Source of the DNA: Escherichia phage 235Ecol030PP
DNA length: 64,000 bases
Sequence record: PP355091.1
Direction: 5' to 3' (one strand)
Below, piece after piece: positions 40,840 through 46,227 of the stretch; positions within the stretch are counted from its first letter, which is position 1; each line of letters begins with the position of its first letter. The position numbers and the translations under genes are program-made. Under the pieces are notes generated by a model. It had not been told where the DNA came from and did not search any database. It saw nothing but the letters and a program-made list of their open reading frames with translations.

Positions 40840-41310
40840 TTAATCATGTTTCCACACCCCATCGGTATTTGACCAAAGTCGCTGATTATCTGATCCTCGC
40901 CACAGCTTTTTAGTCGGAAGATTTTTCTCATACTTCCCATCAATAATAACATCAACATATTTAAGCATTTCTAGTTGTTTAATATCTTCAAACTTATATC
41001 CTGTCCACAACCAAATGCTTTTATTTGGATAAAGATTTTTTACTGTTTGAACAATGCAATGAATAACATCTCGATTATCAGGATAGAGAGGGTCACCTCC
41101 GGTTATAGTCAATCCTTCTATATAATCATTATTCAAACATTCAATTAATTGTTCTAGTGTTTCACCAGTGAATGGAATACCATTTCTAGCATTCCATGTT
41201 GATTTATTATAACACCCTTCGCATTTATGCAAACAACCTGTAACGAAAAGAACTGTCCTGCATCCAGGGCCATTCACAAAGCAGCACGGGTATATTCTGT
41301 CATAATTCAT
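40840..41310 (-). CDS. nrdG: anaerobic RNR activating protein (radical SAM), 156 aa
   Basis: CxxxCxxC cluster (CLHKCEGCYN), size 156 aa. Confidence 0.85.
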   Translation of the reverse strand: MNYDRIYPCCFVNGPGCRTVLFVTGCLHKCEGCYNKSTWNARNGIPFTGETLEQLIECLNNDYIEGLTITGGDPLYPDNRDVIHCIVQTVKNLYPNKSIWLWTGYKFEDIKQLEMLKYVDVIIDGKYEKNLPTKKLWRGSDNQRLWSNTDGVWKHD

Positions 41311-42139
41311 TTATATATTTCCAATTATAGCCTTCAACACTTTTACGTTCGCCATTTAAACATTTTAAAATATTTCCTTTGCTAGAAATATTAAAATATT
41401 TTGCTGCGTCTGGTATATAATTAAATGTTTTTAAAAGAACACCATCTTTATATGCGCCAAATAAATTAAGAGTATATTTTTCTCGAAGACGTTGATGTTT
41501 CCTTTTCATAACCTCAGGATTTGCATACGCCAACCTCAATGAATTTCTATGTTTTTCTTTTACTTCAGGTTTTTGCATTGCTAACTTAGTTAGCCTGGAA
41601 ATTTTATTTCTAACTTCGTCAGTTTTCATTGCATTTGACAAATTTAATAAAGTTTTATTTCTAACTTCAGGTTTTTGCATTGCTAACTTAGTTAGTTCTC
41701 TATGTCTTTTTCTAAAATCGTCATCCTTCCATATATTTTTCGATAATTTTGACATAGAGCGGTGAAATAATTCCTTTTCACCGGAATACAATTTAAGAAT
41801 TTCATCCAATTCATCTGTATTAAATCTATCGGTATTCGAGTTTATCATTCTATGAAAGGCATAACACATTTTACTATTACTTGTTTTAGCTAAATAGTAA
41901 TGAGCTAACGCGTGGTCATAATATGACAAATTAACAATATTCCATTTATCTGTTTTATATTCAGGAAATATAGATTTGGGAAGCACGTGATGTGCTTCCG
42001 TTTTTCCTTTTATTTTAGGATTATTATAATTTTTTGTTATCAAATCAACATATGACAATAGTAAATCATTATTTTCTTCAAATATTAAAGATAATTTATC
42101 ATTCACAAAATCGCAAGGATAAAATCTATCATAATTCAT
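41300..42139 (-). CDS. HNH homing endonuclease (Mob-like), 279 aa, with NUMOD3 repeats
   Basis: AHHVLP...N...DHALAH HNH motif; duplicated LTKLAMQKPEV units; first 13 codons mimic the nrdG N-terminus. Confidence 0.75.
   Translation of the reverse strand: MNYDRFYPCDFVNDKLSLIFEENNDLLLSYVDLITKNYNNPKIKGKTEAHHVLPKSIFPEYKTDKWNIVNLSYYDHALAHYYLAKTSNSKMCYAFHRMINSNTDRFNTDELDEILKLYSGEKELFHRSMSKLSKNIWKDDDFRKRHRELTKLAMQKPEVRNKTLLNLSNAMKTDEVRNKISRLTKLAMQKPEVKEKHRNSLRLAYANPEVMKRKHQRLREKYTLNLFGAYKDGVLLKTFNYIPDAAKYFNISSKGNILKCLNGERKSVEGYNWKYINEL
41566..41700. repeat. direct repeat of ~27 nt within the HNH gene (NUMOD3 repeat units)
   Basis: aggtttttgcattgctaacttagttag occurs twice about 103 nt apart. Confidence 0.8.
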
Positions 42140-43441
42140 TGGTGTTTAACCCTATGCATGATTTCTTTATTTTTACCGAGATTAAATCCGCGTTCGTTCG
42201 GGTTTCCAAGATATCCGCATGTTCTTCTTATGGTGTTCATCTTTTTAGGATCAGTTTCTCCACAAATAGAACAAACAAATCCGTTTTCAGTAGGAGTCAT
42301 TTCATGGGTACTTCCACATGTAAAACATTTATCTACTGGCATATTAACACCAAAATAATCTAAATGCTGTGCAGCATAATCCCATACGGCCTCAAGACCT
42401 TTTAGGTTATTTTTCATATCAGGAAGTTCAACATAAGAAATGTGACCACCTGTCGCAATGAAATGATATGGGGCTTCGCGAGAAATCTTTTCAAACGGAG
42501 TAATATTTTCTTCTACTGAAACATGGAAACTGTTAGTGTACCAGCCTTTATCAGTAACATCTTTTACACTTCCATATTTTTCTGTATCAAGTTTACAGAA
42601 GCGATAACAAAGGTTTTCAGCAGGAGTCGAATACAAACTAAAAGCAAACCCAGTTCTTTCAGTCCACTGTTTAAGACGAGCATTCATTTTAGTTAAAATT
42701 TCTTGTCCAATATCACGACCGACAAGAATATTCAATTCATGAATACCAATGTATCCTAAAGACACTGAACTTCTGCCATTTTTAAATAACTCAATTATAT
42801 CGTCATCAGGTTTAAGACGAACCCCGAATGCACCTTCTTGGTAAAGAATAGGAGCAACAGTCGCTTTAACTCCTTTTAAGGAACTAATTCTACACATCAA
42901 TGCTTCAAAACATAAATCCATTCGTTCATTGAACAATTCAACAAATTTCTGTTCATTGAACTGTGTTCCAATATAAGAATCTAACGCAATACGAGGAAGA
43001 TTCAATGTTACAACGCCAAGATTATTACGTCCATCAAGAATTTCATTACCAGTCGAATCTTTCCATACGCTCAAGAAACTACGGCAACCCATTGGAGAAA
43101 CAGGAATAGATGAACCGGTGATAGCTTTATTGTTCTTAGCTGAAATAATATCAGGATACATTCTTTTGCTTGCACACTTTAGAGCAAGCTGCTTAATATC
43201 ATAGTTCGGATCGTCTTTGTAAAGATTAACGCCTTCTTCGACGAACATAACAAGCTTAGGGAAAATAGGAGTTATCCCATCACGACCAAGACCTTTAATA
43301 CGATTTTTCAGAATTGCTTTCTGAATCATTCGTTCAGTCCAGTCAGTTCCCGTACCAAATGTAATTGTTACAAAAGGAGTCTGTCCGTTTGAACTGAAAA
43401 GTGTATTTACTTCATCATTATATTCAGCATGAGTCGCAAAT
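42136..43441 (-). CDS. nrdD: anaerobic ribonucleotide reductase NrdD, exon 2 (boundary approximate)
   Basis: C-terminal glycyl radical motif RRTCGYLG and CxxC zinc ribbon; 5' limit set by the upstream endonuclease stop. Confidence 0.8.
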
Positions 43442-44470
43442 TCATGCTCGTTTATATGAAACAACAAAATTTGGATAGTCCATAGATATGCAACGTTCTT
43501 TTATAGTGCTAGGATGAAAATTTAGCGCTTTAGCTGCTTCTATATAAGACGTATACTTAATACCGTCAACAACCACATATTCAGGAACTTTATGAATAGT
43601 AGTCTTAATACTCAAAACAAGAGGATGAGTTTCGACTTCACTTTCAGTGCAATTTAAATATTCCGCTGCTTTTTTAAAACTTCTAAAAGTTTTATTTTTA
43701 AGCTTTATCGATACTTGTTTTTTACTTTTTCGACTATTGATATTATTTTGCACATGTTCCTTAGATCTTCCGTTTTTAGCATAATATTCAGCTACAGAAG
43801 ATTTTATATTGTTTTTATGAGATTCGGATAACACTTTACCCTTATGAGCATCTCTTAATTTTTGAATATGTTCTTCAGTATCCGGATGCTTATAAAACTT
43901 TTTACCGCCTATGGATTTATTTAAACATTTTTTGCTATAAAAATATTTACGTATGACCTCTTCTTCATGTTTTAATGCATCTTTATAACTATCAAATGTT
44001 TTTAAAATTATCCATTTAGTAGGTGTATCAGTTTTTAAGCGTTCATTTATATACTTAGATGACGTTGTGTAAGTTTTCCAGTTTGTGGGCTTGTTTTTAA
44101 TTGTTCTAAATTTTTTATAACCGATATAAATGTCGCCATTAGAAAACTTAACTAAGTATGTAAATGCGTCTTTATCTTTTATTTTAGTACAACGTCTTTT
44201 TATCCATTTCATTGTTTCACCTCGTATTCATAAGATAATCTTATTTATACAAGATGACTGCTGCATGTCGCCATGCAGATTAGACTATATCTTCATCTTT
44301 CGATGCCGGCCGTTTCGAATAGCATTAGCTTCTATTCTACACCGCTACATTCATCACGGTTAGTCGTTAGGCATTTAGTTCAAAAGAACATTTAGCACGG
44401 GATTGTCTACTAGAGAGGTTCCCCGTTTAGACCGGTTTTACATGAGCCTGAATTAAATTAACTCATACGC
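43431..44470 (-). mobile_element. group I intron in nrdD carrying a GIY-YIG endonuclease ORF (boundaries approximate)
   Basis: nrdD frame interrupted; conserved group I core strings (AAGATATAGTC S-element-like, AAACGGGGAAC) at 44213-44452. Confidence 0.75.
43442..44212 (-). CDS. intron-encoded GIY-YIG homing endonuclease (I-TevII-like), 256 aa
   Basis: GDIYIGYKK GIY-YIG motif; located inside the nrdD intron. Confidence 0.75.
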   Translation of the reverse strand: MKWIKRRCTKIKDKDAFTYLVKFSNGDIYIGYKKFRTIKNKPTNWKTYTTSSKYINERLKTDTPTKWIILKTFDSYKDALKHEEEVIRKYFYSKKCLNKSIGGKKFYKHPDTEEHIQKLRDAHKGKVLSESHKNNIKSSVAEYYAKNGRSKEHVQNNINSRKSKKQVSIKLKNKTFRSFKKAAEYLNCTESEVETHPLVLSIKTTIHKVPEYVVVDGIKYTSYIEAAKALNFHPSTIKERCISMDYPNFVVSYKRA

Positions 44471-44998
44471 CTGAAACGCGTCATAGACATCTTTTTCTGT
44501 TTTAGATTGAGCATAATTCAACGCATCAGCGATTTGCCATTTTTCTGCATCCTCAATATGTTTTGCATAGGTGCGTTTAACATAAGGAGAAAGTACTTTA
44601 TCTACATTCGCAAAAGTCGTTCCGCCATATTGATGGGAAGCAACCTGTGCAGTAATTTGTGCCATAATTGCAGTAGCAACGCCAATTGATTTAGGAGTTT
44701 CAATCTGTGCATTACCGAGCTTAAATCCGTTCTCAAGCATTCCTTTTAAATCTACTAAACAGCAATTAGTAAATGGAAGAGCAGGGGAATAATCAATATC
44801 GTGCACGTGAATAATTCCGCTTTCATGCGCTTTCATAATAAAAGACGGGACCATATTTTTGGCAATGTGTTTAGACACAATACCAGCCATAAGGTCCCGT
44901 TGAGTTGGAAAAACACGAGAATCTTTATTAGCATTCTCGTTTAAAAGGTCTTTATTAGTTTTATGAATCAATCCTTCAATTTCTTTTTCAATTGTCAT
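44456..44998 (-). CDS. nrdD: NrdD exon 1 (3' limit approximate; in-frame stop at 44453-44455 lies inside the intron)
   Basis: N-terminal region of class III RNR; frame runs into intron sequence. Confidence 0.75.
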
Positions 44999-45468
44999 TT
45001 TAAACTCTTTCTAAGCTGCTTCTTAAATGAAGCTATTAACTGTGTTTTGGTGTCAGATTCATTATATTCAAATCCTCTTTGAAGCATCTCGGCCATCATT
45101 TCCTCTTTTCCTAAACGAGAAAATTCCTTTGATTTATCTCCAACAAAGTTAGGGTGAATATTATTTTGGGTGTAATCGGATTTTAAATAAGTAAGTAAAT
45201 TTTCTAACCATTCAAGATAATCAACACCTTGTCCCTTTAAGCCAGAACGATTAAATTTATGCTTCATTTGACCTTCTGCGGCATTGCAGAGATTACAAAG
45301 CAATCCACGCACCTTTCCTGCTTTTGGTCCATTTAATTCATGGTCATGGTCGAGGTGATTAGCTTGAACATCAGGATTTAGTTCTCGTTGGCAAATTAAG
45401 CATTTACCGTTTTGTGCATTATAAAATTTCTGTTTTTCTTCTTTATATAATTTGCCAGTCAATAACAT
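44995..45468 (-). CDS. 49: endonuclease VII (Holliday junction resolvase), 157 aa
   Basis: CxxC...HLDHDH...CNLCN zinc/His-Me motifs; size 157 aa. Confidence 0.85.
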   Translation of the reverse strand: MLLTGKLYKEEKQKFYNAQNGKCLICQRELNPDVQANHLDHDHELNGPKAGKVRGLLCNLCNAAEGQMKHKFNRSGLKGQGVDYLEWLENLLTYLKSDYTQNNIHPNFVGDKSKEFSRLGKEEMMAEMLQRGFEYNESDTKTQLIASFKKQLRKSLK

Positions 45469-45507
45469 AATAAAACCCTTACCTTAAATAGATAAGGGTA
45501 TTTATTA

Positions 45508-45684
45508 TTTTCAAGTATTGTAAAACATTCGATGCAATCGTTTATACTGTCGAATCATCTTTTTAGTAGGACGAGAATAGGTTCCTACGCAAGTGGTCAT
45601 ATGAGGGTCCGTAGAATGTCCTTTAATAAAAAGTTTCCAAACCTTACCGCCATTTAACTTTTCAGTATAAACCAATTCGGTTTT
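45508..45684 (-). CDS. small protein, 58 aa, sharing its C-terminal 15 residues with the upstream gene
   Basis: hand-translated; ends ...IRQYKRLHRMFYNT. Confidence 0.4.
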
Positions 45685-45723
45685 CATTAAAATGCCTTGT
45701 CAGAAAAAGAATTTTGAGTTTTT

Positions 45724-46227
45724 TCAAGTATTGTAAAACATTTGATGCAATCGCTTATATTGCCGAATCTTTTGGTCAGAAAAAGAAATTTGATTTTCAA
45801 GCCATTCAATGTATTCTGCGGCAGCTTGCATCAGGTTACCTTCATAGCCATCGTTATTTTCTTGTGCAGCTAATTTAGCTAATGCGTATGAAATACGTTC
45901 ACCTTGAAAATCGGCTTTAGGCTTCTGAACAACTTGATTAGTTTGCTCTACAACTTCTTCAATTTCGCCATTTTCTACTGATTCAGTATTCCACAAACAC
46001 CAATACGTAATTGGCTTATCGTAGATGTTAATAATCTTTCCATCAGAAAGTTCAATTTCAATAATTCCAGTATCAGGTTCTATATCATCTTCACATTCTT
46101 TTGCAAGTTCACGAACTTTAAAGACAGTACCTGCACTAAGTTCCGGCCAGTAATTACATAGCCCTGTATCAGCACGATTAATTCTAAACCACTTATCTAC
46201 TGTAATCATGTCCCATCTCCATATCAA
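45724..46227 (-). CDS. hypothetical protein, 167 aa
   Basis: ORF; C-terminus ...IRQYKRLHQMFYNT. Confidence 0.55.
   Translation of the reverse strand: MIWRWDMITVDKWFRINRADTGLCNYWPELSAGTVFKVRELAKECEDDIEPDTGIIEIELSDGKIINIYDKPITYWCLWNTESVENGEIEEVVEQTNQVVQKPKADFQGERISYALAKLAAQENNDGYEGNLMQAAAEYIEWLENQISFSDQKIRQYKRLHQMFYNT

Follow-up and report, generated by a model that had tools for sequence, protein, structure and literature searches.

A group I intron carrying an I-TevII-family endonuclease gene in nrdD of Escherichia phage 235Ecol030PP, a predicted sister allele of the T4 nrdD intron

An interrupted nrdD gene

The DNA considered here, a 64,000-nucleotide (nt) stretch of Escherichia phage 235Ecol030PP (PP355091.1; hereafter, the window), carries an nrdD gene interrupted by what we read as a group I intron with a homing endonuclease gene of its own. 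The nrdD region is encoded on the minus strand and flanked by gene 49 (endonuclease VII, 45468..44995) and nrdG (41310..40840), in the same order as in T4. An open reading frame (ORF) at 44998..44453 (minus strand) matches positions 1-141 of the Pfam NRDD profile, and a second one at 43467..42136 (minus strand) matches positions 145-562 of the same profile together with Gly_radical, the glycyl-radical domain. A preliminary description of this DNA had proposed an NrdD frame split into a 5′ and a 3′ part by about 1 kb, which is borne out by the two Pfam-matched exon pieces, both on the minus strand, and the 1,045-nt insertion between them. The parts of the interrupted gene are as follows.

44461..44998, minus strand: nrdD exon 1, 538 nt; codons 1-179 and base 1 of the Tyr180 codon; Pfam NRDD positions 1-141, E = 1.5e-40
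43416..44460, minus strand: group I intron, 1,045 nt; borders from T4 homology and intronless junctions; Rfam RF00028, 72.7 bits
44453..44455, minus strand: in-frame TAA stop, intron nt 6-8, within the P1 loop; read from the sequence
42136..43415, minus strand: nrdD exon 2; bases 2 and 3 of the Tyr180 codon, then 425 codons and a stop; Pfam NRDD and Gly_radical; spliced translation

Exon 1 ends in ...GCG TAT GAG T, and the intron starts with UAAUUUAAUUCAGGCUCAUG and ends in ...UGAAUAUAAUG, its terminal G at 43416. The insertion thus falls between bases 1 and 2 of the Tyr180 codon, in the context ...AYE-Y-EVN..., at the same site as in T4 nrdD (sunY). The predicted ligated junction reads ...GCGTATGAGT followed directly by ATGAAGTAAAT, and the predicted spliced product is a 605-amino-acid (aa), 68-kDa NrdD with 602 of 605 residues identical to T4 NrdD. 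In T4 (NC_000866), the homologous borders (44815..45847) enclose exactly 1,033 nt, which we take to be the published length of the sunY intron. Four intronless nrdD genes (those of D5505, RB18 and two Mosigviruses), which read TATGAAT/ATGAAG, align colinearly with the window across the junction, and because a slide of 1 nt in either direction spoils this match, the border position is exact. The only in-frame, G-terminated 3′ border that gives back NrdD lies after G43416; this terminal guanosine, at the end of ...AUAAUG, is the one that group I introns require, and together with the U·G pair in P1 at the 5′ splice site it follows the border rules of the class. Along with the T4 borders and these rules, the alignment to intronless nrdD that the preliminary description had suggested as a check fixes the intron at 44460..43416, whereas its own borders, 43431-44470, were approximately placed but overshot the 5′ splice site by 10 nt and stopped 15 nt before the 3′ one. 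The TAA halts exon 1 translation two codons into the intron and stands at intron nt 6-8 in the T4 allele, too.

Structure of the intron RNA

In a 1.5-kb slice of the window (43200-44700), the Rfam group I intron model RF00028 matched at 44492..44261 over its full length (model positions 1-253) with 72.7 bits (E = 3.8e-18), as compared to a gathering score of 50 bits. This bears out the conserved group I core named in the preliminary description, and does so by the covariance-model search that it had proposed. Matches to the Vg1 ribozyme and to snoU61 in the same slice fell far under their thresholds and were set aside as chance. The RNA elements comprise:

44441..44467, minus strand: P1 helix; exon UAUGAGU plus intron U1 (44467..44460) with the internal guide GGCUCAUG (44448..44441)
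44449..44452, minus strand: candidate P10 guide strand UUCA (intron nt 9-12), complementary to exon 2 positions +2..+5, UGAA, 43414..43411
44261..44440, minus strand: ribozyme core; J1/3, P3, P4, P5, P6/P6a, P7, P7.1, P7.2, P8 and P9, without P2; from folds and covariation
43416..43463, minus strand: 3′-terminal domain; P9.1 hairpin (43463..43449), P9.2 hairpin including the stop codon (43448..43426) and tail UGAAUAUAAUG

The internal guide lies 13-20 nt into the intron and pairs with the 5′ exon such that the last exon base, U44461, forms a U·G wobble with G44447 at the splice site. All 8 base pairs (bp) of P1 are kept in each of three alleles (those of the window, T4 and a metagenomic phage described below), with one compensatory change between exon and guide (A-U to U-A). 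At exon position -2, both the window and the T4 intron alleles have a G, which pairs with a C of the guide, whereas intronless genes have an A. As judged from sequence complementarity, a P10 pairing of 4 bp in the window and 3 bp in T4 is possible.

Minimum free energy folds of the window and T4 alleles, run independently, agree in P1, P3, P4, P5, P6/P6a, P7.1, P7.2, P8 and P9, and place a hairpin over the ribosome-binding site of the endonuclease gene after the core. Unaided, RNAalifold recovers P1, P3-P6a, P7.1, P7.2 and P9. A two-allele alignment holds 56 pairs that are 98.2% paired, with 12 compensatory double changes, and a three-allele alignment (window, T4 and metagenomic) holds 54 pairs with 98.8% of cells paired and compensatory changes in 17 pairs. 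Controls in which the pairing partner was slid gave 33-38% paired cells, as opposed to 98-99% for the real structure; the core structure is far beyond chance. The conserved core P3-P9 with its P3/P7 pseudoknot is present, P7 being formed by GACUA (44365..44361) with UAGUC (44287..44283), an invariant helix of 5 bp. The additional helices P7.1 (5 bp, two compensatory) and P7.2 (6 bp, three to four compensatory) between P7 and P3′, and P9.1 and P9.2 before the splice site, place the intron with the T4-type introns (td/nrdB/sunY subgroup).

The ribozyme thus takes up the first ~200 nt of the intron; after P9 comes the endonuclease gene and then the 3′-terminal domain, whose ~48 nt (P9.1, P9.2 and the terminal G) end the intron and make the ribozyme complete. 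This 3′-terminal domain of two hairpins and the tail GAAUAUAAUG is common to T4 sunY, nrdB and td, which build it from differing stem sequences, and its hairpins are also present in the metagenomic intron. P9.1 overlaps the final endonuclease codons (VSYKR), a stretch that is invariant between alleles, suggesting a dual constraint on RNA and protein. The P7.2 loop (44330-44322) contains AAGC in the window, sunY and nrdB and AAGU in td, and the P9.2 loop (43441-43433) contains GCGA in the first three and ACGA in td. The two loops may conceivably touch, given a G-C/C-G dinucleotide pairing that would become G-C/U-A in td, one covarying position across four introns.

The endonuclease gene and the comparison with T4

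The features of the endonuclease gene and its upstream region are:

43442..44212, minus strand: homing endonuclease gene, 256 aa, I-TevII family (GIY-YIG), between P9 and P9.1
44217..44257, minus strand: ribosome-binding-site hairpin, hiding GAGGUG (44223..44218); -17.6 kcal/mol here and -15.6 kcal/mol in its T4 counterpart
44249..44242, minus strand: late-promoter-like TATAAATA, inside the 5′ arm of the hairpin
44216..44234, minus strand: homing-site-like sequence CTTATGAATACGAGGTGAA, a putative operator, directly upstream of the endonuclease ORF

In line with the 256-aa GIY-YIG ORF reported earlier for the insertion, the product of 44212..43442 matches the SegE_GIY-YIG profile above its cut-off (PF19835, 26.6 bits; cut-off 25) as well as NUMOD1 and the homing endonuclease family phrog_314 (E = 3.6e-29). 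Its AlphaFold model (pLDDT 81.6) has the GIY-YIG fold. Across 14 relatives, Y19, Y29, G31 and E83 are invariant and N98 nearly so, in agreement with the catalytic residues of GIY-YIG enzymes, and K33, the basic residue after YIG, is K or R in most. Along its entire length the protein shares 56% identity with I-TevII (catalytic part 59%, linker 57%, C-terminal part 53%), and the ratio of nonsynonymous to synonymous substitution rates (dN/dS) between the two is 0.245, with dS near saturation.

Upstream of the ORF, TATAAATA is kept in the hairpin 5′ arm of both the window and the T4 alleles. Transcripts initiated after it would not contain the hairpin, so late transcripts would escape repression; such an arrangement of ribosome-binding-site hairpin and late promoter has been described for I-TevII (PMC2988022). 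The sequence CTTATGAATACGAGGTGAA agrees with the intronless junction CTTATGAATATGAAGTAAA in 16 of its 19 positions; its core, TATGAATACGAGGTGAAAC, is unchanged between alleles that are otherwise 66% identical. This fits both the operator concept for a homing-site-like sequence upstream of the ORF (PMC2988022) and the endonuclease-invasion concept (PMC3984707).

The preliminary description had taken the element for the known T4 nrdD/I-TevII arrangement, and therefore not new. The kind of element, its site and its codon are indeed those of T4, whereas the intron is only 65.7% and the endonuclease only 56% identical. While the exons are ~98% identical to those of T4 (~2% of positions differ), the intron differs at roughly a third of its positions. 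By comparison, the allele of U5, the second phage published as a carrier, is that of T4 at 99.9% identity and has a 2-nt deletion within its ORF. In a word-indexed search of a database of 5.8 billion proteins, only two 90%-identity clusters were found, the window type with 64 members (P0001) and the T4 type with 38 (P0002), so that the enzyme falls outside the cluster of I-TevII and its close orthologs. An exhaustive HMMER search added only three more full-length relatives (E ~1e-42 to 1e-22). The nearest of the distant relatives (P0003) was absent from the phage collection, and IMG/VR contained one locus, of T4 type. Judged by these comparisons, the window intron is a sister allele distinct from that of T4, and its enzyme a different protein of the same I-TevII family. 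No description of the window allele was found in the searchable literature, which leaves most subscription journals outside, and sequences of this allele have been in GenBank for years.

In its organization the element closely follows the T4 nrdD (sunY)/I-TevII intron: insertion point and codon phase are identical, P2 is absent and P7.1/P7.2 and P9.1/P9.2 are present, the ORF comes after P9 with its last codons overlapping P9.1, the same early TAA is used, the TATAAATA promoter, the hairpin hiding the ribosome-binding site and the homing-site-like sequence stand upstream of the ORF, and the product is a GIY-YIG enzyme of similar length (256 aa versus 258 aa in T4). In contrast to the T4 element, it measures 1,045 rather than 1,033 nt, with compensatory changes at 12 base pairs, a P8 of 4 instead of 6 bp, a P7.2 loop of 9 instead of 4 nt, 9 additional nt in the loop of the hairpin preceding the ORF, a P4-P5 of td rather than sunY type, and other wobble bases in the flanking exons.

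The td-like part of the core is delimited by one block:

44390..44431, minus strand: td-identical block of 42 nt (intron nt 30-71), covering J3/4, P4, P5 and the start of P6; blastn 42/42

By direct count, this block matches the td intron of T4, T6 and RB3 at 42 of 42 positions and T4 sunY at 32 of 42. In its 5′ half, the core resembles td at 90% and sunY at 71%, whereas in its 3′ half it resembles sunY at 81% and td at 71%. Since the metagenomic third allele has the T4-sunY type in the block, the td type is probably derived. Its identity to td suggests an exchange between introns. Domain exchange between T4 introns was reportedly described by Bryk and Belfort in 1990, and the mosaic core of the window fits such exchange. 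A search of the window for other td-type cores with GATATAGTC, allowing up to one mismatch, gave only one exact site and otherwise counts at chance level. Outside the block, the element is unlike the T4 td intron, which encodes I-TevI: td lies in another host gene and has its ORF in the P6a loop instead of behind P9, its P1, P2 and P3 are different, identity across the 3′ half of the core is no more than 71%, and the two proteins cannot be aligned past the catalytic motif.

Distribution, homing and alternative explanations

Intron presence had been said to vary between T-even phages, and among related phage records with a matching junction it does: 620 of 689 (~90%) are uninterrupted. Sixty-eight records hold a full-length intron, ~43 of them the window allele (at least 98% identity) and the remaining ~25 the T4 allele (~66%). 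Many records contained a second matching place, possibly a td intron. The window allele, the commoner of the two, is near-invariant among its ~43 Tequatrovirus and Mosigvirus genomes; in six other carriers, including one Mosigvirus, the intron shows 1-8 differences over 1,045 nt (at least 99.2% identity). The exon flanks behave differently, as seen from the following positions:

44489, 44486, 44483, 44480, 44477, 44474, 44471 and 44468, minus strand: eight foreign bases at third codon positions of the exon 1 flank (-29..-8), all synonymous

T4, U5 and four intronless phages have the native bases in place of these foreign ones. The six other carriers have between none and six of the eight, patchily, and in common they have foreign bases at +23, +26 and +29, a tract missing from the window. 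From their sequence, these patchy flanks look like co-conversion tracts left by homing, and the whole pattern is the mark of homing that took place repeatedly from a donor not yet sampled, with co-conversion varying in extent and the endonuclease decaying on occasion. Phage 215Ecol030PP has a window-type intron (contig positions 1701-2179) in which a 566-nt internal deletion in the ORF leaves a 479-nt intron with an intact core; as U5 has a T4-type intron with the 2-nt deletion mentioned above, endonuclease decay is seen in both alleles. In GenBank, carriers of the window allele list nrdD as two coding sequences (CDSs) and the ORF as 'homing endonuclease' or 'hypothetical protein', with no intron feature and no joined CDS.

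A metagenome search with a four-sequence alignment yielded the third allele on two phage contigs (L019, 526-1630; L020, 2195-3341), in which nrdD is interrupted at the same codon and phase (GLE-Y-EIN). This intron scores 81.5 bits with RF00028, and its ORF encodes a 261-aa protein of the I-TevII family, 37% identical to the window enzyme; exon 2 of its host NrdD is 49% identical to that of the window. With both values this low, the association of the intron site with this enzyme family is old and extends beyond T-even phages. The metagenomic intron has the same set of helices as the window, an ORF after P9 and GCGAC in the P9.2 loop, but P3-P5 of the T4-sunY type. The nrdD introns of Vibrio phages 1.084.O and F96 have group I cores 74-85% similar to the window over intron nt 85-204; unlike in the window, they lie at other sites, with two interruptions in F96, and carry HNH or winged-helix ORFs instead of a GIY-YIG gene of the I-TevII family.

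We consider it about 90% probable that the insertion is a group I intron of the T4 td/nrdB/sunY type that splices itself, is mobile and encodes a diverged I-TevII-family endonuclease, at the site of the T4 nrdD intron. This reading builds on the anatomy of the locus, an RNA structure backed by covariation, the enzyme fold and the distribution pattern among phages, and all testable features of the family were found except near-identity to the T4 allele and enzyme. On T4 precedent, the 5′ exon end UAUGAGU would pair with the guide GGCUCAUG, leaving the U·G wobble at the splice site, which an external guanosine would attack; the terminal G would then dock and the exons join, restoring the frame ...AYE-Y-EVN... 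of the 605-aa NrdD. The TAA at intron nt 6-8 would halt ribosomes ahead of the core. The 256-aa enzyme would be expressed late from the TATAAATA promoter, on transcripts that evade the hairpin hiding the ribosome-binding site, and would cut intronless nrdD close to the exon junction, whereupon repair would copy the intron and variable lengths of exon flank into the cut genome. As to its history, the window allele would not have diverged from the T4 allele in place but have entered T-even phages from an unsampled, more distant nrdD, its P4-P5 hairpin having at some point been exchanged for the td-intron version.

Several points weigh against this account. Scans of the whole 64-kb window with Rfam, at gathering as well as E-value thresholds, returned nothing. 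We attribute this to speed filters that are stricter on longer input rather than to the absence of an intron: as the same model scores 72.7 bits on the 1.5-kb slice, the empty scans are rejected as evidence of absence, and the lack of any group I structure in the whole window, an outcome that the preliminary description had named as counting against an intron, is a false negative. In general, negative whole-window scans for RNA families should not be taken as absence. Further, the candidate P10 comprises 4 bp only, and P7 and P5, being without variation among the alleles, give no covariation information. Neither a Foldseek comparison of the endonuclease model with the Protein Data Bank (PDB; no significant match) nor a sequence search of the PDB with the endonuclease (no match) supported the assignment, and when an intronless donor with all foreign flank bases was sought none was found, the best match being 91% over 89 nt. 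The patchwork of flanks could partly stem from ordinary recombination between phages instead of endonuclease-driven homing. Finally, splicing, cleavage, target specificity and the timing of expression are argued by analogy with T4.

Going further, the window allele might be a natural chimera, a nrdD-type intron that acquired a td-type P4-P5 by recombination and whose enzyme has diverged in specificity such that it invades nrdD variants poorly cut by I-TevII. We hold this tentatively, and rather doubt it. If true, it would account for the window allele being the commoner of the two and for each allele having synonymous changes of its own near the place where cleavage is expected (+8..+20 of exon 2). 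I-TevII is reported to cut 13-15 nt into exon 2.

A narrower alternative retains the splicing ribozyme and supposes an endonuclease inactive for homing, the ORF decaying or being kept for another role and the intron spreading by ordinary recombination. Decay at this very site, as in 215Ecol030PP and U5, and the ~90% of relatives without an intron would suit it. In the window, however, the ORF is intact with conserved catalytic residues and a dN/dS of 0.245, the layout of promoter, hairpin and operator-like sequence is conserved, and a near-identical intron occurs in divergent backgrounds with short, variable foreign tracts at the insertion site, as double-strand-break repair predicts; we regard inactivity as quite unlikely. 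Clearly less probable still is that the locus simply holds the T4 nrdD intron and I-TevII themselves, with nothing beyond the T4 reference. Although T4 shares the insertion site, the gene order (gene 49, nrdD, homing endonuclease gene, nrdG), the ORF position and the regulatory layout, the alignments already refute this, with intron and endonuclease at 65.7% and 56% next to exons at ~98%, T4 and U5 sharing another allele at 99.9%, and the proteins forming two separate 90%-identity clusters.

That the RNA is not spliced and nrdD is expressed as two polypeptides has the least to recommend it: the two CDSs listed for GenBank carriers and the split yet functional nrdA of phage Aeh1 (cited in PMC3653736) speak for it, but the ribozyme is complete and supported by covariation, the exact junction yields a 605-aa protein, the only in-frame start of the second piece is a TTG within the endonuclease ORF, and both mobility and self-splicing have been reported for the T4 allele at the same site (PMC2988022). 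An intein and a simple splitting of the gene were likewise rejected, in view of the stop codons, the structure of the ribozyme and the exact fit of the junction.

Two neighbouring loci contain direct repeats. At the mobC locus between nrdD and nrdG (41300-42139, minus strand) lies a 279-aa HNH ORF (phrog_655) that is only 38% identical to T4 MobC, over 60 aa, and whose first 13 residues (MNYDRFYPCDFVN) duplicate the N-terminus of NrdG; a 41-nt direct repeat (80% identical; 41271-41311 and 42100-42140) brackets the insertion. From its sequence, this ORF looks like a different, free-standing homing endonuclease that brought a copy of the nrdG start. Between gene 49 and a pin-like ORF (45724-46227), there is a 58-aa ORF (45511-45687, minus strand) that shares with the pin-like ORF the terminal RQYKRLHxMFYNT, underlain by a 63-nt direct repeat (84% identical; 45494-45556 and 45707-45769). 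T4 has only a 41-nt gap at this position, and in 215Ecol030PP a small hypothetical CDS is annotated there.

The T4 nrdD (sunY) intron and I-TevII serve as textbook models of how ribozymes fold and introns home. Work on them has in essence dealt with one sequence only, and the window offers a natural, diverged sister allele at the same site. The element is of an ordinary kind but an uncharacterised, distinct member of it, not surprising in itself and useful to specialists as a natural variant and a case study in homing. As whole-genome Rfam scans miss it, such introns are probably under-reported. For the ribozyme, the sister allele supplies covariation evidence in the form of 12-17 compensatory pairs, one of which joins exon and guide in P1, and its td-identical P4-P5 block represents a probable natural domain exchange between introns of one genome. 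For the enzyme, a second family member on a fixed target lets the evolution of GIY-YIG specificity be asked about, and for homing, a near-invariant intron set in differing backgrounds with a patchwork of co-conversion tracts gives a view of the process at the level of populations.

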